From assembly GCA_003598085.1 (NCBI GenBank), contig QZKU01000026.1:7335-71334 (forward strand): 64,000 bases of DNA, given 5' to 3'. The notes below the pieces were generated by a model. It saw only the letters and a list, made by a program, of their open reading frames with translations, made no database searches and was not told the origin of the DNA. The translations under genes and the position numbers were made by a program. Source of the stretch: Candidatus Abyssobacteria bacterium SURF_5. Its GTDB lineage: Bacteria > Abyssobacteria > SURF-5. Of the stretch, positions 17,622 through 28,380 are shown in pieces (position 1 is the first letter of the stretch; each line of letters starts with the position of its first letter).

Positions 17622-18443
17622 TCAGCTTGAACGAGAAAAATCCGGTAACGAGCATCCGTTCTTGATGTAATTCACCGCATTCCGAAATACCGCCACGCCC
17701 ATTCCCTCGCGCGGGGTTTTTTCGCGGGTCCAGCGTGGATGATTGGTCTGAAAAAGGTACGCCTCCGGATGAGGCATCAGGCCGAAAATCCGGCCCGTCA
17801 AATCGCAGATGCCCGCAATGCCGTCTTGCGAGCCGTTGGGATTGTACGGGTATCCGTCTGCTTTCCCCTCTTCATCCACATATTGAAGCACGACGTGTCC
17901 GCCCGCGTGCAGCCGTTCGAGCACGGTTTCACTCGAAGTAACGAGCTTGCCCTCGCCATGACGGACGGGCAGGTACATTCTATCAATCCCTTTTGTGAAA
18001 ATGCAACGCGAATTCGGGTTCGCCGCCAGATAGACCCAGCGGTCTTCAAACTTGCTCGAATCGTTAAACGTCAGCGTCACCTGCTGATCGCCGTATTTCC
18101 GGTCGAGCGCCGGCAAGAATCCCATCTTGACAAGAACCTGGAAACCGTTGCAGATGCCGATGATCAATTTTCCGTCTTCAATAAAACGGAGCAACTGATC
18201 CCGCAGATGCTGTATCAGCTTGTTGGCGAGCACCTTGCCCGCGGCGATATCATCTCCGTATGAGAATCCGCCGGGAATCGCGAGAATGTCATAATCGCTT
18301 AATGATTTCCCGCCCGGCTCGATCAGGTCGTTCACGTGCACCCGCTCGGCGCGACCGCCGACCCGACGCATGTTAAAGGCATACTCGGTCTCATAATCGC
18401 AGTTGATGCCGTAGCCGGTAAGCACTAATACGCTTGGTTTCAT
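17622..18443 (-). CDS. purQ: Phosphoribosylformylglycinamidine synthase, glutaminase subunit
   Basis: Class-I glutamine amidotransferase with GICNGFQ (catalytic Cys) and HPE near the C-terminus; 273 aa. Confidence 0.85.
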   Translation of the reverse strand: MKPSVLVLTGYGINCDYETEYAFNMRRVGGRAERVHVNDLIEPGGKSLSDYDILAIPGGFSYGDDIAAGKVLANKLIQHLRDQLLRFIEDGKLIIGICNGFQVLVKMGFLPALDRKYGDQQVTLTFNDSSKFEDRWVYLAANPNSRCIFTKGIDRMYLPVRHGEGKLVTSSETVLERLHAGGHVVLQYVDEEGKADGYPYNPNGSQDGIAGICDLTGRIFGLMPHPEAYLFQTNHPRWTREKTPREGMGVAVFRNAVNYIKNGCSLPDFSRSS

Positions 18444-18478: not shown

Positions 18479-20215
18479 CTAACTCTTAATAAATCTTTTG
18501 TAAAAGACCCAAGTGTTGTGAAAACCTCTCCGTTTATTACGATTTGCGCCTCTGAAAATGACAACATTGATTCCAATTTTTCGGCAGATAGGGCAATTAC
18601 ATCTTTCCCAAGGCTTCTCAGATAGAAGTTTTTCATATTTTTCAGCAAAATGATTGTCTTCACTTTGACGTTCTAACAAAGGTCCGTATCTATTTAATGC
18701 AATAAGAGTTTCTTCTGCTCCTTTTGGATTGTCTCCAAAAACACCCAAGGAGCGAAGACAATTTTCTTCAAGTATACGAGCTTTCTCTTTGGAAAGTTTC
18801 TTATCTGCTACGGCTTCCTGTATCGCTTTGGAATCACTAAACGGTACCCGAACGGCCGCATACCATGTTCCGTCAACCGCCAAATAATTTTGATCCGATC
18901 TTAGCCAAGCCTTCCGAAAATATGAGGCAGAATCAAAGCTAGATACTCCCAATGTGCGAAAAAATGGTTGTAGCTTGGGCCGAAGGATCCCAAATAGATG
19001 CAGCCATAAGTTTTCTTCGTGCCCTCTTGTTCGCTCTTGCAGAGCTTTCCTGACTGCGCCCACAATCTCGATTATTTCTGAATCAGAGCGTGGTACTAAT
19101 CCACCCAAAGCTATATGCCGATATCCCATATCTATGTACTGATGCAAGCAGGATATATAGGAGCGGACACCAACGCCCTGAATGACGCCCATAGGTATAA
19201 AAGAATAGTTCTTTTTCTTCCATAGTCCAATGAATTCAGCAGCGTTTTCTGTTGTCAGTTTTACTCTTTCGTACCTGGCAGATAGACTCAATATGCGCTT
19301 ACGTGAACTTCCATCTTTATGTTTTTTTACTATTTCTTGCAATGGTATATGGTCTACTGACGCGCCTATATCAAAGCCGTATTTGTGGTACATATCTAAA
19401 GCTTCCATTGTGGAAAAAGGAGGTTTACTCTCCGCTGTATATGAAAATGCCCCACAATCTCCAAACAGAAGCATGTTATCCGGGAGTTGTAGCACCTCTC
19501 TGAGGTTTCCAGATGAGCACCTCCCCTTGGCCATTCTATAAATTGCACCTTTACCCATATTCATGTGAGATAAACTTAAAAGCACGCCATCATAAGGGGC
19601 ATCTTTGCCGTATATTTCATGGGCGTATGCTTTACGAGACTCACCAGCCTTTATGGGTTCTTTGCCTTCGTCTGGAATAAATGGCTCATCAACGTAATCG
19701 TCCCAATCAGGAAAAAAATAAATATATGAGCGGATGCTTTTACCTTTTTTTTCGATAGATGCTGTCTTAGATGGCAGTTTTTCAAGCCATGATTTCATGG
19801 CTTTCATTTTCATGCCGATGGGTCCTTTTGCGTAAGTAAACTTCGCTTTTGGGAAGATTTTCTCAATCCCCCTGACCGCATTAAGATAATCTGCACCTAA
19901 ATTCAGGAATATACCCTCCGGCTGTGATAGCTTTTGAAGCGCTGATAGGACCCTTTTGTTAAATGATGTGGCAGAATGCGAGTCAAAACGCTGGTCGTAT
20001 TGACTTATTATAGTTGTAGCATCGATCAATCCATATTTGGCTGAGAGAATCTTAATCTGTAATCCCGGAGGCCAGCCTTTAACGAGAAGCATTTTTCTTA
20101 GAACTCGAAAGTTAACTCCATCATACAAGCACATGGCCGGAGCTTTTATTACCTGCGGTAATTTAGTTTTTGAACAGGCCACTATCAATAAGTGACCTTC
20201 GAGGTGAGTTGTCAT
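18479..20215 (-). CDS. TGT-family (queuine/archaeosine tRNA-ribosyltransferase-like, DpdA-like) base-exchange enzyme with a roughly 230 aa N-terminal domain of unknown function
   Basis: The C-terminal approx. 350 aa carry the TGT hallmarks. LFGDCGAFSY aligns to the TGT Asp-nucleophile loop (DSGGFQ). GVSSFDSASYF aligns to the second catalytic Asp loop (GxDMFDCV). The C-terminal zinc site CNCPICx22H matches TGT CxCxxC...H. The protein is Lys-rich, AT-rich codon usage; 578 aa. Confidence 0.72.
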   Translation of the reverse strand: MTTHLEGHLLIVACSKTKLPQVIKAPAMCLYDGVNFRVLRKMLLVKGWPPGLQIKILSAKYGLIDATTIISQYDQRFDSHSATSFNKRVLSALQKLSQPEGIFLNLGADYLNAVRGIEKIFPKAKFTYAKGPIGMKMKAMKSWLEKLPSKTASIEKKGKSIRSYIYFFPDWDDYVDEPFIPDEGKEPIKAGESRKAYAHEIYGKDAPYDGVLLSLSHMNMGKGAIYRMAKGRCSSGNLREVLQLPDNMLLFGDCGAFSYTAESKPPFSTMEALDMYHKYGFDIGASVDHIPLQEIVKKHKDGSSRKRILSLSARYERVKLTTENAAEFIGLWKKKNYSFIPMGVIQGVGVRSYISCLHQYIDMGYRHIALGGLVPRSDSEIIEIVGAVRKALQERTRGHEENLWLHLFGILRPKLQPFFRTLGVSSFDSASYFRKAWLRSDQNYLAVDGTWYAAVRVPFSDSKAIQEAVADKKLSKEKARILEENCLRSLGVFGDNPKGAEETLIALNRYGPLLERQSEDNHFAEKYEKLLSEKPWERCNCPICRKIGINVVIFRGANRNKRRGFHNTWVFYKRFIKS

Positions 20216-21033
20216 TTTTTGTAAATGAATTTGCGCTTGTAATTGTTGGTTAAGTTAAATTGATTATTCGCTAAAATTAAATGTGGAAGTTCCTCAAAGG
20301 ATGATATTGTAAAATGTGGACAAATATCCCTTACCGCCGGCATCCAAAATGGCTGAAAGCCACCAGCGAAATAGATAGTGTAGAATCCAGCTTCCTTAGC
20401 AGGCGCTATATCTCGATCAAGCTGGTCTCCGACCATGTAATTTGACTGAGATGCAACATCAAATTCTGCAAGGATCTCTTGATATATCCTCACTTCTTTC
20501 CTTGCAACTAGGATTTTGTGGATGTAATTAGAAAGCTCATACTTATTCAGTAATAATTTGCACTTATCCCGGTTACCTTCCGTTAGGATAACCAGAAGCC
20601 CACCTCGCTGGTGTAATTTCTTTACGCCCTGACGCACCCCAATCCGTAATGGCGGAATTTCCGATTTCAGTTTTTTAATGAACAGCATCTCCATTTCGTT
20701 AATAAAATCTCGGCCCAGCACATCTGTTCCTGTTCTTACTGCTTCTCTCACCGACACGAGGGGAGAATGTCCCGTCAGAGCTAGGGCTAGGGCATTTATT
20801 AGCAATCGCGCAGGATATTCCAAATTATAATTATGCAGTCGCGCTAAATTTTGATCCATCCTTCTCAGAAACGAAAGCTTATCATCCGAGGGAGCAGTAA
20901 CCTTCAAATGCTTTTCGATCTCGGAAAGCAAAATCAATTGGCTTTTCGCATACACCAAATCAGTATCCCATAATGTATTATCTGCATCCAAGACCACTAG
21001 CACTTCTCGGTTCCTTTTAGATTTTGCCTTCAT
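20212..21033 (-). CDS. HAD-superfamily hydrolase/phosphatase. The track ORF extends to 21129; the start is placed at Met MKAKSKRN to avoid overlap with the upstream gene
   Basis: HAD motif I VVLDADNTLWDTD (DxDxT), motif II ILTEGN, conserved Lys, and motif IV GDQLDRD; 4-nt overlap with the TGT-like gene. Confidence 0.72.
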   Translation of the reverse strand: MKAKSKRNREVLVVLDADNTLWDTDLVYAKSQLILLSEIEKHLKVTAPSDDKLSFLRRMDQNLARLHNYNLEYPARLLINALALALTGHSPLVSVREAVRTGTDVLGRDFINEMEMLFIKKLKSEIPPLRIGVRQGVKKLHQRGGLLVILTEGNRDKCKLLLNKYELSNYIHKILVARKEVRIYQEILAEFDVASQSNYMVGDQLDRDIAPAKEAGFYTIYFAGGFQPFWMPAVRDICPHFTISSFEELPHLILANNQFNLTNNYKRKFIYKK

Positions 21034-21053
21034 ATGAACCCTACTTGAAAAAG

Positions 21054-21746
21054 CTACAATGTCTCTGGGAAAACAAACATCAATCCACAAATGACTATCC
21101 ACAAAACAAAAACGATTGTACTTAGCCACAACATAAAAACCCCCAGTTGAAGGGTTTGCAGCTTAATTCGAATTTTATAAGCTATTAAATAAGCCTCATG
21201 AATGTAATGCTTTATATACAGCAATTGAAGTTGATTACTGCAATTGTCGCAAAATGCTGCTGCCCAACCTCTGGGGGTAGCCTCAATTATCTTTGGAAAG
21301 AACAGGAAGGAGGCTGGATTTTTCAAGTCTGCACTTTTCGGAGGTGAACCTTTCGACCAATCATGAGGTACGTTAAATCGTGGTCTAACTGACCAAATTA
21401 TGAAAGAAGCTCCTGAAACTACCAACAGACAGAAGAGACCGAATACGGAATAGAAAAGCCACAATGTCCAACTCCACATTTGATAATTCATCAATGACCC
21501 ATTGTCGTCTTTGGGAAGAAGAGCCACAAAAATTGCTCCTGCGAGAGCGCTTAAGAACGCGGTTGCTGTCAATATCCGGTTGGCCTTTTCGTCTTCATAT
21601 TCCGTAAGGTGCTTTACCTCCTCGAAAGAGGTTTTCGCAAAACTTAGCAGAGCACCAAGGTCTTCTCTTGCAGGATCAAGATTCTTCAGTTCTGAAAATA
21701 TGGGCTCTGAAATCTTCCGGCTTTCAGAAGGGCTAGCCTTAGCCAT
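21054..21746 (-). CDS. Small integral membrane protein (about 60 aa cytoplasmic N-terminus plus 3 predicted TM helices), a candidate membrane effector of the island
   Basis: Hydrophobic segments ILTATAFLSALAGAIFVALL, WTLWLFYSVFGLFCLLVVSGASFIIW and LGVFMLWLSTIVFVLWIVICGLMFVF; no enzymatic motif; AT-rich. Confidence 0.5.
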   Translation of the reverse strand: MAKASPSESRKISEPIFSELKNLDPAREDLGALLSFAKTSFEEVKHLTEYEDEKANRILTATAFLSALAGAIFVALLPKDDNGSLMNYQMWSWTLWLFYSVFGLFCLLVVSGASFIIWSVRPRFNVPHDWSKGSPPKSADLKNPASFLFFPKIIEATPRGWAAAFCDNCSNQLQLLYIKHYIHEAYLIAYKIRIKLQTLQLGVFMLWLSTIVFVLWIVICGLMFVFPETL

Positions 21747-21791
21747 TGATCTCTTTGTCCCTCCCTTGTCTTCCGTTATTCCTTCTCATTA

Positions 21792-22976
21792 TTATGGGAC
21801 TGTTGGCTTGGATTGCTTTTGAGCAGGACAAAAATTCTTGAAATCACATGCTGTGCAGGTTCTAATATTCTGATTAGTCTTCCAGCATTTTCTGATAGCT
21901 ACTCCAGCAATTTCTGCAAGCACGGAAGCCTCAATTTCTTCAACAGTTTGATCAAATCTGGATAAACTAGCTCCTATCGCACTTTTATTCACGGGAATAA
22001 TTCTTATTGAGCGATTTTCTTTGAACGTCCTAGAAAGACTAGGTAAATTGCTGCGTCGGTTCCAGCGTTGGATATTTTCTAGGTCCTTGCCTGTTGCCAT
22101 TATATCAGTTTGGCCTTGGTTGATATCGTTCTTAAGTGCTAGCATATCTTCAATTGATAAAGCTAATTCATTTATATATATGAGTATACCCGCTATTATT
22201 TGCTTTGCGCCCACCTGTTGTGATCGTAGCCAGGAATAGGTGAGAATCTGCCATTCGTGATGTTTCCACGTTTCGTCAACAAAAGAAGGGCGGCGCATGC
22301 CTTTGTAATCGACAATGATTTCATATTCATCAAGGGAAGAAACTTTGAAGTAATGCTGAACATCTGAATGCTGATTCAAATAATGCAGAAGCAGACTTCC
22401 AGATGGAGCATTTACAATGCTAACAGAGCTTATGACATCAATAACGCCCTTCATTCCATAATAATTTGATCTGCTAAGATTGGGATGATAACTTGGCATG
22501 TCTCGACTGCACTTCAATTTCACTTCTGCCTCGGCAATTATTGGAAACAGATGCATTCCCCATGTGTTTATGGCCATTTCTGCTCGCTGGCTAGCAATAA
22601 GTTTATGTGGATGATTGGCGTCGGGACAAAACCCTGGTGTCGTTGCAGAAGAATCAAATGGACAAAAAAGATTTGGCGGAGGTGGAAGACCTCTCGCGAT
22701 CAATCTATCATTAATTTGCGCTTCGACATTACGGATGTCTGATTCCCATAGCCACGGAAATCTTCTCTTTTTTGGCTCGTCACGCCATTCACGATACGCC
22801 TCTTCCATCAATCCATGGATAAATTCACCAAACCACAACTGAACCGGAGTCGATGGTGGGAGGGACCCTTTATTGTAATATCTATACTGAAGGCCGCATG
22901 TTAAGAATGCCAACAAGTCACCCGTCAAGCTGTATTCAGGAATACTATACGGTTTTGGTCGTACAGAAAGAAACAT
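21792..22976 (-). CDS. Cas4/RecB-like PD-(D/E)xK nuclease with a 4Fe-4S cluster cysteine set
   Basis: N-terminal C...YRYY motif (LTCGLQYRYY) typical of the Cas4/AddB nuclease domain. Core MKGVIDVI (Asp) plus IVDYKG (D-x-K). C-terminal Cys triad CTACDFKNFC. 394 aa. Confidence 0.68.
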   Translation of the reverse strand: MFLSVRPKPYSIPEYSLTGDLLAFLTCGLQYRYYNKGSLPPSTPVQLWFGEFIHGLMEEAYREWRDEPKKRRFPWLWESDIRNVEAQINDRLIARGLPPPPNLFCPFDSSATTPGFCPDANHPHKLIASQRAEMAINTWGMHLFPIIAEAEVKLKCSRDMPSYHPNLSRSNYYGMKGVIDVISSVSIVNAPSGSLLLHYLNQHSDVQHYFKVSSLDEYEIIVDYKGMRRPSFVDETWKHHEWQILTYSWLRSQQVGAKQIIAGILIYINELALSIEDMLALKNDINQGQTDIMATGKDLENIQRWNRRSNLPSLSRTFKENRSIRIIPVNKSAIGASLSRFDQTVEEIEASVLAEIAGVAIRKCWKTNQNIRTCTACDFKNFCPAQKQSKPTVP

Positions 22977-22982
22977 TTGCTC

Positions 22983-25331
22983 CTACCTCAAATGTGTCAG
23001 GTTTTGTAGTCCCCTGCCCCAATGCCAGGTATTACCTCTATCCCATCCGGTGCCGATATTGCGGATTCTATTTTTGACGGCATTCAGCCCAACTAGCAAG
23101 AGGACATCCTGAGCTCTACTGAAGGCAACAAAGTAATGTCTAATAAGATCGTCAAATGCTCTATCAAGGGATGAACGTGTTGACGTTCCCAAGGGAGAAA
23201 ACTGCCTCAATTCATCTTCAATCTTACATGTTTTGCCGCCATCTCTTGGGAATCTCTTAAAAGCCTGTCGCCAGTGATTTATCCTAAAATCACTTCCTAC
23301 ATCTACAATTACAAATGGGAATTCCAGTCCTTTTGCCTGATGAATTGACATGATATTAACTCTGTCGCTAGGAAGCGTATCAAGTAGGTCCTCATTGACT
23401 TCTATGGCTCCGCTGGCTAATGGAACAAAGATGTTCCAAAGCGCCTCTTTAACAAAAGCGTGCTCTAGACGGATATCGGCCTTATTTGGGTCGAATAGGA
23501 TTTCTGCTCCGAAGCTTCCAAACAAACCACTCTGATTGATGGATCTAGTTATAGCTTCAAGATAAACCAATCCTTCTATGTCGTCTTGCATGCTAGGTAT
23601 CCAAGTCACAAGCTTATAAACTAGATCATTCAGTGGGACTCTCTCCTTTTTCTGAATTCTTCTCCCCAGAGGAATTCGAGATTGCCAAGATTGAACGAAC
23701 TGTTGAAGATGTTCCTTGTTTGCGAGGTGGTTATTATTGACATAACCCATGGCATGGTCACGCCACGAGTTGAATGTGTTGGCCGCTGTCGTCGGCAGAT
23801 TTGTTAAACTCTTTTGAACGGAACTCCATGGATCAACACATTCCAGAATTAGACCACAAAGCACTTGCACTTCTGGAATTTGTTGAAGGGGACATCCGCG
23901 TGGATTAAAAACTTCAATTCGGGGCGATGCTTCATGTAGTTCAGTTCGTAGGAGAAAGGGAAGTCGCGGTCTATCAGAGTAATCAAATTCTTGCGGAGAA
24001 GAACATAACAAGGCAATATCACCGAGAGAGCCATCTTTGTTCAGCTTAATCGTAGCTGCCTGTCCTTTTTGGGGGATCCGCAGACCTTGTCCTCTCGACA
24101 CTTCTTCAATGAGTACAGCCAAATCATGAGCTAACGATCCGACGTCGTCTCTAAACATACCTAGAATTGGACATTCTTGTGGTTCTGGAATTTGCCGTAC
24201 GTGTTTAATTTTAGGTTTAGAGTTTACGCGAGCTTTCTGAAATTGCTGATCCAAGCCAATGAAGTTATTTATAAATTCTACGATAGTCGGAGTCGACCGA
24301 TAATTTAAAGAAAGATATTTTGGAACTGGTTTGAGATTTAAACATTTGGCCATTCTCTTTTCGAACGACCGAAATAATTCTACTGTTGCACCGCGAAAGC
24401 GGTAAAGCGATTGATCGTCATCTCCGACAACAGTAATGCTTCCCTTGTTAATTAAGGCAGCACGTGTCAATTCAAAGTATATCTTCTCTTGAAGTAGGTT
24501 TGTGTCCTGATATTCATCTATTAGGACGAACTTTATATTTTGAAGAAAGGAGTTTAACTTTTGGGAAAGAATTTGTTGAAAAAACTCTGCTTCTAATTTT
24601 GCAAAATCGTACAAAAGCTTCTTCTGTAATTCTTGATTATATGCAGTGATGGCATCACACGCAATTTGTGCTCCCAAATGCTGAGCCTTCCGTTGGAATG
24701 CAGAAATATCTATTTGGTCATGAAAGAAACGGTCTTTAATTTCTCTTAAAGTAGAACTTAACTCAGGAACATTTAACCCGAAGGTTCCACCTCTTAAAGA
24801 AGCAACATAATTCAGCAGATTTGGGTCCTTGTATCTGCCATTGGAAAAAAGGCCAGTCCGCATCATCAAGGCATTTGAAACAAAATCTTGGACTACGATT
24901 GGCGCAGGAGCACCAGGAGCGCGATAATTTCCTAAAGTCTCTTCAGCTATGCTGTCCAGAGTTCCTGTAATAATCCTGTTGAAATCTAGTGACTTCAACC
25001 TTGATCTTAACTTCTCGTATGATGAATCCTTTAGGAAAGCAGCACGAAGTTGGTCTCCCCATCCTAGAATCCTTGACCTAAGTTCAGCGGCAGCTTTACG
25101 GGTAAAGGTGGTAACCAATACATTCGAGGGGTCCATTTCATCAAGATATATTAACTTCAGCACTCTAAGTGTAATGACAGTTGTCTTACCACTGCCCGGT
25201 CCCGCGATAAGATAAAGCGAGGAACCTTGAGCAGCCTTAATCGCTTCATATTGGCTAAGATTTTTTTCTTTTCGTATGTCTCTCTGAATGAAGGTCAATA
25301 CGGCTTTTTCAAAATCGGGCCAACTAATCAT
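22983..25331 (-). CDS. UvrD/Rep/PcrA-like superfamily-1 DNA helicase
   Basis: Walker A AGPGSGKT, Ia VTTFTRKAAAEL, motif II VLIDEYQDTN, III VVGDDDQSLYRFRGA, IV LSLNYRSTPTIVEF and VI IHQAKGLEFPFVIV; 782 aa; 6-nt gap to the nuclease gene. Confidence 0.88.
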   Translation of the reverse strand: MISWPDFEKAVLTFIQRDIRKEKNLSQYEAIKAAQGSSLYLIAGPGSGKTTVITLRVLKLIYLDEMDPSNVLVTTFTRKAAAELRSRILGWGDQLRAAFLKDSSYEKLRSRLKSLDFNRIITGTLDSIAEETLGNYRAPGAPAPIVVQDFVSNALMMRTGLFSNGRYKDPNLLNYVASLRGGTFGLNVPELSSTLREIKDRFFHDQIDISAFQRKAQHLGAQIACDAITAYNQELQKKLLYDFAKLEAEFFQQILSQKLNSFLQNIKFVLIDEYQDTNLLQEKIYFELTRAALINKGSITVVGDDDQSLYRFRGATVELFRSFEKRMAKCLNLKPVPKYLSLNYRSTPTIVEFINNFIGLDQQFQKARVNSKPKIKHVRQIPEPQECPILGMFRDDVGSLAHDLAVLIEEVSRGQGLRIPQKGQAATIKLNKDGSLGDIALLCSSPQEFDYSDRPRLPFLLRTELHEASPRIEVFNPRGCPLQQIPEVQVLCGLILECVDPWSSVQKSLTNLPTTAANTFNSWRDHAMGYVNNNHLANKEHLQQFVQSWQSRIPLGRRIQKKERVPLNDLVYKLVTWIPSMQDDIEGLVYLEAITRSINQSGLFGSFGAEILFDPNKADIRLEHAFVKEALWNIFVPLASGAIEVNEDLLDTLPSDRVNIMSIHQAKGLEFPFVIVDVGSDFRINHWRQAFKRFPRDGGKTCKIEDELRQFSPLGTSTRSSLDRAFDDLIRHYFVAFSRAQDVLLLVGLNAVKNRIRNIGTGWDRGNTWHWGRGLQNLTHLR

Positions 25332-25350: not shown

Positions 25351-28300
25351 TCACCAGTTCAGCGGCTGCTGCCATGCCCGCTTCAATTGGAATATATCGG
25401 CTGAAAGGATCTTTTGTCTGCCATTTTTCAAGACCAGGAGTGGAGATCGTGTTACTTTTCCCGCTCTGGCAAATGGGACTCCATCCATCATTTGTTCAAA
25501 CTCTTTCGCTTTTCGAGGAGGAACAGTTATCACGAACCGGCTCTGGGACTCGGAGAATAGCAGGTAATCGGCGCGCAGAGGTTCAGGCTGCGGAACGGCG
25601 GACAGATCGGCCGTGATGCCGAATCCGCCGGCAAAGGCGCTTTCCGCAAGCGCGACTCCGAGACCGCCGTCGGAGCAGTCGTGGCACGAGGCGATCAGGC
25701 GGCGATCGATCGCATCCGATACTCTTGAATAAATCTGTCTTGCAAGCTGAGAATTCACCCGCGGTACTGAATTCCCGATGAACCCGTGGTGCGCGAAGTA
25801 TTCGCTGCCGCCCAGTTCATTCTTCGTCACGCCGACCACGTATACGAGGTGGCTTGGCCGCTTCACGTCCATCGAAACGACTTTGCGCACGTCCTCGATC
25901 CGCCCGAGCACCGAGAACAGGAGCGTGGGCGGCACCGATATCTTGATGTCGCCGATCATGTAATCGTTCTTCATGCTGTCCTTGCCCGAGATGCAGGGAA
26001 CATCGTACGCCGTACAATAGTCGTAAAGCGCCATGTTCGAACGGACAAGCTGCGCGAGTTTGTAGTACCCGTCGGGCGTCTTCTCCGATTGCACAGGATC
26101 GGGCCAGCAGAAGTTGTCGAGTCCGGCCAGATACCCAAGCCGGCCGCCGACAGAAATCGCATTTCTCACCGCCTCGTCGATAGCGCAGGCGGTCATGTGA
26201 TATGTGTCGAGGTCGCTGTAGCGCGGGCAGATGCCGCTCGCAACGACCACGCCTTCATATGAATCATACAGAGGCTTCAGGACGGCTGCATCGCCGGGCC
26301 CGTCATTGGAGCTGCCGATAAACGGCTTGAGCGCGCTCAAGCCCTGGACCTCATGATCGTATTGCCGTACAAACGACTCTTTGCTGCACACGTTCAGCCG
26401 CGCCAGCATCTGCTCCAGCAAACGGTTGTAGTCCTGCGGCTCGGGAAGGTCCGGCTCTTCGTGCTTCGGCGCCTTCCAGCGCGCCTGCAAATTCATTCTC
26501 GGCACGCCCTCATGCAGGAAATCCATGTCGAGGTGAGCAACCACCTTACTTTCGTACAGAACCTCAAATTTGCCGGAATCGGCAAATGTTCCAAGCACCG
26601 TCGCTTCGACGTCGCGCCTCCTGGCCAGTTCGAGAAAGCGATCGATCTTTTCGGGATCAACCGCGAGCGTCATTCGCTCCTGCGCTTCCGATAGCAGGAT
26701 TTCCCACGGCTGCAGGCCCTTATATTTCAAGGGCGCCTTCTCAAGTTCGATCCGGCATCCGTTGGAGAAGCGCGCCATTTCGCCGACCGACGACGAAAGG
26801 CCGCCGGCGCCGTTGTCCGTGATCGCGCGGTACAATCCCAGATCGCGGGCCTCAAGCAGGAAATCGGTCATCTTCTTCTGCGTGATCGCGTCGCCGATCT
26901 GAACCGCCGACGTCGGCGACTCGCTGTGAAGTTCTTCGGATGAAAAGGTGGCGCCGTGAATGCCGTCCTTGCCGATCCGACCGCCGGTCATCACGATCAG
27001 GTCGCCCGGCAAAGCGGTCTTTTCATGCGCCGGCTCGCCGAGTATCTCCTTCGGCATGAGCCCGCCTGTCCCGCAGAACACGAGCGGCTTGCCCGCGTAA
27101 CGGTCGTCAAAGAGGATGCTGCCGTTGACATCCGGAATCCCGCTCTGGTTTGCGCCGTCGCGCACGCCACGGTGCACGCCCTTGAAGATGCGCTTCGGAT
27201 GGAGCAGGCGGGGCGGGAGAGGCTTGTCATAATCCGGTGGAGCGAAACAGAACGTGTCCACATTGAAAATCAGACGACACCCCTTGCCGGTGCCGAAAGG
27301 ATCACGGTTGACGCCGACGATGCCGGTTACCGCGCCGCCGTATGGATCGAGAGCTGACGGGCTGTTGTGCGTTTCCACCTTCATGACCAGGTTCCACCTG
27401 TCATTGAAGCGGATGACTCCGGCATTGTCGTGGAAAACCGATACCAGCCACGGAACCCGCTTGGAAATCTCGTCGGTCGAACGTCTGATATACGTCTTGA
27501 ACAGGCCGTTGATTTGGCGCCGGCCCTGTTCGTCCTCATAATCGATGAAGGCGTTGAATATCTTGTGCTTGCAATGTTCCGACCACGTCTGCGCAATGCA
27601 TTCCAGTTCGACGTCTGTCGGCTGATTCGAAAGTCCGTACCTGCTGCGATCGCGAATCGCGTTTTCGCTGCGAAAATAATTGCGGATCACCCGCATCTCA
27701 TCGAGACTGAGCGAAAGGATCCCCTCGCGGCTGATGCGTATCAGCTCCTGGTCGGACACAGCAAGATCGAAAGCCTTGACATGGACTGGCTGCGGTGTCC
27801 CTGCCAACGGAAGCGGGAGTGAGATGCCGCCGGAACGGCGGAATTCATCGGCGTCGGCGATGCGCCACTGTTCGATCAGGCCGTTGGCCAGCAGCCCGCC
27901 GGCGATTCTCTCAACCTGAGCCCGCTCCAGGCGGCCCCGCAAAACATATTGTTTGGCGGTGAAGACGGTGCTCCCGTCCGCGCGCTCTCCAAAGATATCG
28001 ATCATCGCCTCGCGCGAAGTCTTGCCTACATTATCGGTGACTCCGGGTTTGAAGCCGATTTCGATGACCCACGAGAAATCAGAGGCCAGAGGCTGGTCGA
28101 GCGTGGACACATCGATGACGGGATCGGCGAACAGGTGCGTGCGAAGCATGTCGGCGTCGTCGCATCTCAGGCTGGTCAACAGCGTGTATACCCGTATTAG
28201 CCGCGCGTCGTCGACGGCGATATGCAGGTCTTCCACGATATTTTTTCGAATGGCGTCGCCCGCGGCATCGAATTGATCGCGCCGCAGCCCGACTTCTATT

Positions 28301-28380
28301 CTGTAGGTATTAAGATCAATCACGGTTACCGCCGGTACTTTACCTTCCCTGTCCCCGAAACTATTCGCCCGATAGTCCAA
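25351..28380 (-). CDS. purL: Phosphoribosylformylglycinamidine synthase subunit PurL with N-terminal PurS-like domain(s) fused. The annotated start is TTG; an alternative GTG at 28323 sits 2 nt after the purM stop
   Basis: AIR-synthase-related domains (SFGDREG..., PurM-like repeats) with an N-terminus resembling PurS (KPGVTDNVGKTSREAMIDI); 1009 aa. Confidence 0.85.
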   Translation of the reverse strand: MDYRANSFGDREGKVPAVTVIDLNTYRIEVGLRRDQFDAAGDAIRKNIVEDLHIAVDDARLIRVYTLLTSLRCDDADMLRTHLFADPVIDVSTLDQPLASDFSWVIEIGFKPGVTDNVGKTSREAMIDIFGERADGSTVFTAKQYVLRGRLERAQVERIAGGLLANGLIEQWRIADADEFRRSGGISLPLPLAGTPQPVHVKAFDLAVSDQELIRISREGILSLSLDEMRVIRNYFRSENAIRDRSRYGLSNQPTDVELECIAQTWSEHCKHKIFNAFIDYEDEQGRRQINGLFKTYIRRSTDEISKRVPWLVSVFHDNAGVIRFNDRWNLVMKVETHNSPSALDPYGGAVTGIVGVNRDPFGTGKGCRLIFNVDTFCFAPPDYDKPLPPRLLHPKRIFKGVHRGVRDGANQSGIPDVNGSILFDDRYAGKPLVFCGTGGLMPKEILGEPAHEKTALPGDLIVMTGGRIGKDGIHGATFSSEELHSESPTSAVQIGDAITQKKMTDFLLEARDLGLYRAITDNGAGGLSSSVGEMARFSNGCRIELEKAPLKYKGLQPWEILLSEAQERMTLAVDPEKIDRFLELARRRDVEATVLGTFADSGKFEVLYESKVVAHLDMDFLHEGVPRMNLQARWKAPKHEEPDLPEPQDYNRLLEQMLARLNVCSKESFVRQYDHEVQGLSALKPFIGSSNDGPGDAAVLKPLYDSYEGVVVASGICPRYSDLDTYHMTACAIDEAVRNAISVGGRLGYLAGLDNFCWPDPVQSEKTPDGYYKLAQLVRSNMALYDYCTAYDVPCISGKDSMKNDYMIGDIKISVPPTLLFSVLGRIEDVRKVVSMDVKRPSHLVYVVGVTKNELGGSEYFAHHGFIGNSVPRVNSQLARQIYSRVSDAIDRRLIASCHDCSDGGLGVALAESAFAGGFGITADLSAVPQPEPLRADYLLFSESQSRFVITVPPRKAKEFEQMMDGVPFARAGKVTRSPLLVLKNGRQKILSADIFQLKRAWQQPLNW

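Follow-up and report, generated by a model that had tools for sequence, protein, structure and literature searches.

The 64,000-nucleotide stretch of contig QZKU01000026.1 of Candidatus Abyssobacteria bacterium SURF_5 that was analysed here (the window) carries on its minus strand a gene in which a DpdC-like DUF6884 domain is fused to a DpdA-type DNA-guanine transglycosylase. This gene is the last in a block of five genes on the same strand, which encode, in order of transcription, a UvrD-like helicase, a PD-(D/E)XK nuclease, a membrane protein, a HAD-family phosphatase and the fusion protein (Table 1). All five genes have a G+C content of 41-42%, compared with 54.5% in the flanking purQ-like gene and 58% in purL. 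The resulting low-GC block of 6.9 kb (18479-25331) is situated between the purQ-like gene (17622-18443) and purL (25351-28380), from which it is separated by gaps of 35 and 19 nucleotides, respectively, and was acquired horizontally. The surrounding pur operon runs in the order trpD, purE, purD, purH, purQ, island, purL, purM, purF, and the island is probably co-transcribed with these purine biosynthesis genes. Apart from a 9-bp chance match no direct repeat flanks the island, and neither an integrase nor a tRNA gene was noticed at its borders, no search having been aimed at either.

The open reading frame of the fusion, which had been proposed in a first-pass annotation made from the sequence alone, is real. 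Its ATG at position 20215 shares an ATGA overlap with the stop codon of the HAD gene. The public gene model of Candidatus Abyssobacteria SURF_5 (P0001) is 537 amino acids long and begins at M42. This start drops 41 conserved residues (20093-20215 of the window), including strand β1 and the CxxxK motif, and homologues support the 578-residue reading frame, which has the ATGA overlap.

Table 1. Features of the five-gene island, with positions in the window.
Feature	Position	Strand	Length or residues	Motifs and remarks
DUF6884 (DpdC-like)::DpdA fusion gene	18479-20215	-	578 aa	
N-terminal DUF6884 / YaaA-fold domain	19778-20194	-	aa 8-146	C14-x3-K18, L57-S58-A59-x2-G62
Linker, predicted disordered	19721-19777	-	aa 147-165	pLDDT about 45-68
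DpdA TIM-barrel transglycosylase domain	18479-19720	-	aa 166-578	D253, F257, D288, Q346, G371-G372, D428; Zn C539/C541/C544/H566
HAD-family phosphatase	20212-21033	-		likely start MKAKS...; DADNT (motif I), K179, GDQxxRD
Three-helix membrane protein, distantly PycTM/2TM-effector-like, usual HAD partner	21054-21746	-		PADLOC PycTM 7e-10
Cas4/RecB-like PD-(D/E)XK nuclease	21792-22976	-		C27, C374, C377, C383; D180, D223-x-K225, Q243-x3-Y247
UvrD-like SF1 (superfamily 1) helicase	22983-25331	-	782 aa	Walker A G44-T50, DExQD 272-276, motif III 303-314

Domain structure of the DUF6884::DpdA fusion

The C-terminal part of the protein matches the NCBIfam model NF041059, the equivalog of the DNA-guanine transglycosylase DpdA, with 362.6 bits (cut-off 200) over residues 166-575, which cover positions 3-403 of the 406 in the profile. 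Together with a match to the PADLOC DpdA hidden Markov model (HMM) of 2.3e-102 and a sequence match to the structure of Salmonella DpdA (PDB 7UI4) with an E-value of 1.5e-68 and about 33% identity over the catalytic domain, this bears out, far above chance level, the DpdA-type identity given in the first-pass annotation. A Foldseek search with an AlphaFold2 model of the full-length protein likewise returned 7UI4 first (E-value 7.7e-24), followed by bacterial tRNA-guanine transglycosylases (TGTs). In this model, which has a pLDDT (predicted local distance difference test score) of 77.6 and a pTM (predicted template modelling score) of 0.73, the Zn region is modelled poorly and the packing of the domains is not settled. 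The protein is not a canonical archaeal TGT, and membership of the archaeal and bacterial TGT families was rejected, since it reaches 31 bits against TIGR00432 (cut-off 350) and 21.9 bits against the Pfam TGT model (cut-off 26.3) and has no match to a PUA domain. The match of the fusion protein to the phage TGT family in PHROG is weak.

Active-site residues were assigned following the residue numbers used by Gedara et al. 2023 (PMC10164549), allowing for a PDB-chain tag offset of +20. D253, located in the motif GDCGAFS, corresponds to the general acid/base D95 of Salmonella DpdA, and D428, located in SFDSAS, to the nucleophile D256. In addition to these two aspartates, F257 corresponds to the stacking phenylalanine F99, D288 to the base-binding aspartate D130, G371-G372-L373 to G206-G207-M208, and F408 to L236. 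The structural Zn site CxCxxC...H is formed by C539, C541, C544 and H566. Every one of these active-site residues and Zn ligands is invariant among 36 full-length homologues; the two catalytic aspartate loops and the Zn site described in the first-pass annotation are intact in the alignment to Salmonella DpdA, where neither aspartate is substituted. The only substitution of note is Gln346 at the position of Salmonella H181, where glutamine is also found in the bacterial and archaeal tRNA TGTs.

The additional N-terminal domain noted earlier is present, but its extent had to be revised. Since residues 166-230 fall within the DpdA profile, the transglycosylase part comprises about 410 residues instead of about 350, and what precedes it is not a region of about 230 residues but a shorter domain followed by a linker (Table 1). 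Nor does this region match nothing, as had been stated: profile searches place it in DUF6884, a YaaA-fold family that includes DpdC. The Pfam DUF6884 model (PF21818) is matched with 40.6 bits (gathering cut-off 30), phrog_5935 with 3.4e-12 and the PADLOC candidate PDC-M57A with 9e-7, while matches to the PADLOC DpdC HMMs (E-values of 0.005-0.02) and to YaaA are weak. An AlphaFold2 model of the N-terminal region (62 sequences; pLDDT 87, pTM 0.82) displays a compact α/β domain from residue 8 to 146 with a YaaA-like fold, after which the chain continues as the disordered linker. A distant relationship to YaaA has been described for DUF6884, along with a DNA-binding cleft and the motifs CxxxK and LSAxxG (PMC11701544). 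Both motifs are kept in the fusion as C14-SKT-K18 and L57-S58-A59-KY-G62 and are conserved among its homologues.

DpdC itself has been classed as DUF328 (PF03883) and falls under DUF6884 in current Pfam scans; the genes at the DpdC position in the dpd clusters of Enterobacter, Agrobacterium and Caulobacter give weak DUF6884 matches. When the profile of the fused N-terminal domain was aligned by hhalign with a profile of stand-alone DpdC-like proteins (up to 34 proteins), a probability of 96.5% and an E-value of 7.8e-10 were obtained over 106 columns, with the motifs Cys-x3-Lys, PA.LY.G and LSAxxGL in register. A search of 1.84 billion representative sequences with the N-terminal domain yielded 1144 matches, 371 of them at an E-value of 1e-10 or better.

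DUF6884 occurs in further settings. The giant multidomain protein P0130 of 3221 residues contains DUF6884-like sequence twice, once internally and once close to its C-terminus, which shows the domain to be a mobile module that also occurs in other architectures. Stand-alone DUF6884 proteins are encoded by the P2-like Burkholderia phage KS14 (gp8; locus L176, 4001-4582), near a recombinase and a repressor, and by Caulobacter phage W2 (L175, 3992-4558); both phages are temperate and have no deazaguanine genes annotated nearby. The PADLOC candidate system PDC-M57 includes such a stand-alone DUF6884 protein.

Gene neighbourhoods of the fusion and its partners

Full-length fusions with 53-61% identity were found more than 120 times in metagenomes and metagenome-assembled genomes, and a scan with one genome per species detected relatives in 319 genomes. 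Neighbourhoods were counted for the relatives in the best 80 of these genomes, 79 of which are full-length fusions, by tblastn and unbiased clustering of open reading frames with Pfam checks. Among these 80 are members of Planctomycetota, Poribacteria, Acidobacteriota, Chloroflexota, Latescibacterota, Bacillota, Proteobacteria and further phyla, with isolates among them, for example Pelotomaculum terephthalicicum, Ammonifex thiophilus and Desulfothermobacter acidiphilus. The 80 fused proteins group together as a single clade in a neighbour-joining tree built from 113 DpdA domains. A 689-residue DpdA with a longer DUF6884/YaaA-like region at its N-terminus, encoded on plasmid pART37 of Paenibacillus sp. 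37 (L093, 11161-13230) in a cluster with dpdJ, dpdK, queC/D/E and VUT and no annotated DpdB, lies outside this clade and therefore represents an independent DpdC::DpdA fusion.

The fused gene is closely linked to a nuclease module. A UvrD-like helicase is present in 68 of the 80 loci, usually straight after the fusion gene, and is accompanied by the PD-(D/E)XK nuclease in 66, usually directly downstream of the fusion. The same core of three genes was recovered in five independent look-ups, often in the company of further defence genes, for example SAVED, GmrSD and HsdR. A pair of HerA and NurA occurs in 19 of the 80 loci, alone or in addition, and neither nuclease module in two. The HerA-like ATPase and NurA-like nuclease stand beside fused DpdA in Poribacteria and Latescibacteria-type genomes (loci L017-L027, L035, L037, L043, L051, L057, L060, L063, L077 and L088); as they replace or join the UvrD/PD-(D/E)XK genes, the nuclease arm is modular.

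In the helicase, Walker A, DExQD and motif III show a conservation of at least 93% throughout the family, and the same level is reached among 50 sequences by D180, D223-x-K225, Q243, Y247 and the four cysteines of the nuclease. The nuclease matches PDDEXK_1 with 40.1 bits (cut-off 22) and has no sequence match in the PDB; an assignment as CRISPR Cas4 was rejected (TIGR00372, 23 against a cut-off of 65). DpdD-K were not matched among the other four island genes with PADLOC and NCBIfam models.

The suggestion in the first-pass annotation that DpdB can be dispensed with on account of the N-terminal fusion gains support from a strong anticorrelation: DpdB is found in 1 of the 80 fused loci, compared with about 27 of the 28 loci with unfused DpdA, and a separate DpdC-like gene in none of the 80. 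A scan of metagenomes that started from the HAD subfamily gave 80 loci; counts are taken from the 44 that are 8 kb or longer. Of these, 28 have DpdA within 10 kb; DpdB is present in 27, a DpdC-like gene likewise in 27, QueC in 30 and the helicase in 9. The parallel suggestion that the HAD enzyme substitutes for DpdB is ruled out, since the HAD subfamily co-occurs with DpdB.

QueC and QueD were each found in or beside 12 of the 80 fused operons and the preQ0 (7-cyano-7-deazaguanine) transporter YhhQ/Vut_1 in 7; at least one of the three is present in 24. The most complete arrangement is that of locus L013, which reads queD-queE-queC-membrane protein-HAD-fusion-UvrD-PDDEXK. This makes unlikely the earlier proposal that the inserted base might be something other than preQ0. 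A protein of 190-225 residues without Pfam match is encoded just upstream of QueD and the fusion gene in one genome of the Acidobacteriota and one of the Chitinophagaceae (L001, 8937-9614; L030, 9279-9842). Within the window, tblastn found no QueC, QueD or YhhQ with locus-derived queries (E > 0.01) and no QueC, QueD, QueE or VUT with queries derived from plasmids and L013 (E > 0.3), so that the absence of preQ0 genes stated in the first-pass annotation holds for queC, queD and queE, folE and queF not being among the queries. DpdB gave no tblastn match in the window either, and none of the Rfam families, including the preQ1 riboswitches, reaches its threshold there.

The HAD enzyme and the membrane protein form a pair that is a recurrent accessory of dpd modification clusters, including ordinary ones of the type dpdC-dpdB-dpdA-queEDC: the HAD gene adjoins the membrane-protein family in 35 of the 44 long loci. 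The catalytic motifs of the HAD enzyme are complete, and its sequence matches are restricted to uncharacterised or distant HAD proteins. The membrane protein reaches 7e-10 with the PADLOC PycTM HMM and 19.1 bits with Pfam PycTM (PF18967), below the gathering cut-off of 27.2, and bears a weak resemblance, and nothing closer, to the membrane effectors of Pycsar and CBASS systems. In 8 of the 44 long loci its place beside the HAD gene is taken by an unrelated soluble protein of 317 residues without Pfam match, here called cl15, which was seen in this position in L039, L075, L079, L126, L128, L134, L142, L160, L164, L165, L172 and L173. A constant HAD enzyme with a changing partner is reminiscent of the sensor/effector swapping in defence systems.

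A proposed compact Dpd-type island and its alternatives

In the known Dpd system, DpdA and the ATPase DpdB insert preQ0 into DNA, DpdC independently converts the resulting 2'-deoxy-7-cyano-7-deazaguanosine (dPreQ0) in DNA to dADG (2'-deoxy-7-amido-7-deazaguanosine), and the products of dpdD-K restrict (PMC10164549 for DpdA). The explanation that we favour, with moderate confidence, is that the SURF_5 island is a compact restriction-modification or defence island of the Dpd type, with the fusion as modification enzyme and the helicase and nuclease as restriction arm. The que and yhhQ linkage in its relatives and the intact preQ0-type pocket suggest that the DpdA TIM barrel would exchange guanine in host DNA for preQ0 and thereby mark the cell's own DNA. 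Because the window lacks preQ0 genes, the base would be supplied by the queuosine pathway of the host or by salvage. The tethered DUF6884 domain could act as a minimal DpdC-like module, most likely engaging the flipped 7-deazaguanine, and might convert dPreQ0 to dADG via the invariant Cys14 and Lys18 and the LSAxxG pocket. The tether may also give the DNA engagement that otherwise comes from the ParB-like ATPase DpdB, which would make DpdB unnecessary. A second step catalysed by the DpdC-like domain, a replacement of DpdB, or both are suggested by the absence of both DpdB and DpdC from the fused loci.

The helicase and the Cas4-like Fe-S PD-(D/E)XK nuclease are predicted to form an AddAB-like translocating nuclease, which would degrade unmarked incoming DNA, as indicated by the tight operonic linkage and the interchangeable nuclease modules. 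This pair would stand in for the eight-gene dpdD-K set, a role which HerA/NurA may take in some lineages. The membrane protein and the HAD enzyme would be an accessory pair, our best guess being a function in the handling of 7-deazapurine nucleotides or as a second effector layer. In sum, we infer preQ0 as substrate, dADG or dPreQ0 as product, independence of DpdB and a role of the helicase and nuclease in restriction.

Several observations weigh against this interpretation. The fused domain is about 21% identical to the 320-residue DpdC-like proteins and has no counterpart of the C-terminal half of DpdC, that is, of the residues after about 165. Its nearest relatives, with 35-43% identity, are uncharacterised stand-alone DUF6884 proteins of 140-190 residues, some of them in phages without annotated deazaguanine genes nearby. 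With such low identity, a missing C-terminal half and closer stand-alone relatives, DpdC chemistry is not assured for the fused domain. Moreover, 16 of the 44 long HAD loci have no DpdA within 10 kb, and the membrane protein and HAD enzyme may therefore constitute an independent module that acts alone. Finally, the patterns used in the genome scan were peptides from the fused family, so that the counts give no estimate of how frequent the fusion is among all DpdA proteins.

A possible alternative, which we hold tentatively, retains the system as such and regards DUF6884 as an adaptor which, by binding DNA, flipping bases or recognising lesions, opens duplex DNA to DpdA in place of DpdB, the mark then being dPreQ0 or another base and not dADG. 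YaaA and DUF6884 have been described as DNA-binding, and Bacillus subtilis YfjM has been captured on lesions of the abasic and RNA-base types (PMC11701544); the proximity of the domain to the short stand-alone proteins instead of DpdC, the missing half of DpdC and the absence of DpdB from 79 of the 80 fused loci, with its presence in about 27 of the 28 unfused ones, point in the same direction. However, a separate DpdC is likewise missing from all 80 fused loci, whereas among the 44 long HAD loci, where DpdA occurs in 28, it is present in 27, and the invariance of the Cys/Lys and LSAxxG motifs common to DpdC-like proteins suggests catalysis beyond mere binding.

A bolder version of the favoured scheme, which we consider unlikely, reduces the system to a minimal three-gene Dpd. 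Here the fusion would be a DpdB-independent writer of a 7-deazaguanine mark with a new Cys/Lys chemistry of DUF6884 on a flipped base, the product of which might not be dADG, the UvrD/Cas4-like pair would be the reader, and the HAD enzyme with its effector, either the membrane protein or cl15, would add a nucleotide-sensing abortive-infection layer coupled to deazaguanine metabolism.

It is improbable that the island acts without self-marking, in a type IV-like or base-excision defence in which 7-deazaguanine or another modified guanine of phage DNA is the target of DpdA and DUF6884, and the helicase and nuclease then finish off the damaged DNA. Defence glycosylases against deazaguanine phages exist, DUF6884 has been linked to lesion binding, and no preQ0 genes were found in the window; nevertheless, genes for preQ0 synthesis or import in or beside the operons of 24 of the 80 relatives imply that a base supply is needed, and the nucleophile as well as the base-binding pocket conform fully to DpdA. 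Least probable of all is that the genes serve DNA repair or housekeeping, or that the TGT modifies tRNA, with no role in defence, as might be read from the NCBI family name 'tRNA-guanine transglycosylase DpdA', the occurrence of UvrD and RecB-like nucleases as repair enzymes and the position inside the pur operon, because the archaeal TGT equivalog is not reached (31 bits against 350), a PUA domain is lacking, the nearest solved relative (7UI4) is a DNA preQ0 insertase, and the low-GC block is patchily distributed across phyla in defence-island neighbourhoods.

Comparison with known systems

The island shares with the Dpd system of Salmonella Montevideo (dpdA-K) a DpdA whose catalytic domain is about 33% identical and agrees in its Asp/Asp/Asp active site and its Zn site, a domain of the DpdC family and, among relatives of the fusion, a linkage to queC/D/E and yhhQ. 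The logic of a 7-deazaguanine mark of self combined with a restriction arm is likely to be shared as well. In contrast to the Salmonella system, the island has no DpdB, its DpdC is cut down to a 146-residue domain fused to DpdA, the place of dpdD-K is taken by the UvrD-like helicase and the Cas4-like nuclease, and the pair of membrane protein and HAD enzyme is added. Within the active site, His181 of Salmonella is replaced by glutamine. Lacking DpdB and DpdD-K, the island does not qualify as a canonical Dpd system; the fusion gene itself belongs to the DpdA family. We regard the compact island with its DUF6884::DpdA fusion as a new, pared-down form of Dpd.

If this is correct, one fused protein without DpdB and two restriction genes would, in a widespread natural variant, take the place of the canonical 11-gene system, the restriction half of which is mechanistically unexplored. 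The reasons why DpdA requires the DpdB ATPase in vitro are not understood (PMC10164549), and the variant would offer a much more tractable model for the access of a transglycosylase to guanine in duplex DNA, as well as a model for the chemistry of the DUF6884/YaaA fold and for the reading of 7-deazaguanine marks. The repertoire of dpd genes would also gain two unnamed recurrent components, the membrane protein and the HAD enzyme. In the searchable literature no paper was found that links DpdA with UvrD, treats DUF6884::DpdA as a family or describes the pair of HAD and membrane protein; a prior mention is possible. Two published systems were set aside: the HerA/FtsK-TGT system reported in the 2025 BREX paper represents another TGT context, and type III Druantia is unrelated. 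A search with AF0587/2Q07 found nothing useful.

Phage DpdA proteins, for instance those of phages 9g and iggy, resemble the proposed function of the fusion in that they are DNA transglycosylases acting without DpdB. They differ from it in protecting phage DNA and in having neither a DUF6884 fusion nor a helicase/nuclease partner. Escherichia coli YaaA (PDB 5CAJ), which is 14% identical to the N-terminal domain, is a stand-alone protein of 258 residues with a role in oxidative stress and no transglycosylase partner.

The Bradyrhizobium plasmid pB41S5 carries homologues of the helicase (39% identity), the nuclease (38.5%), the membrane protein (38%) and the HAD enzyme (36%) of the island around its DpdA; there, however, DpdA is unfused, DpdB is encoded twice, and a separate DpdC-like gene as well as queE-queD-queC are present. 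The dpd cluster on pUnnamed2 of Agrobacterium vitis contains ...queC-VUT-(membrane-protein family)-HAD, and these alphaproteobacterial plasmid clusters keep DpdA unfused.

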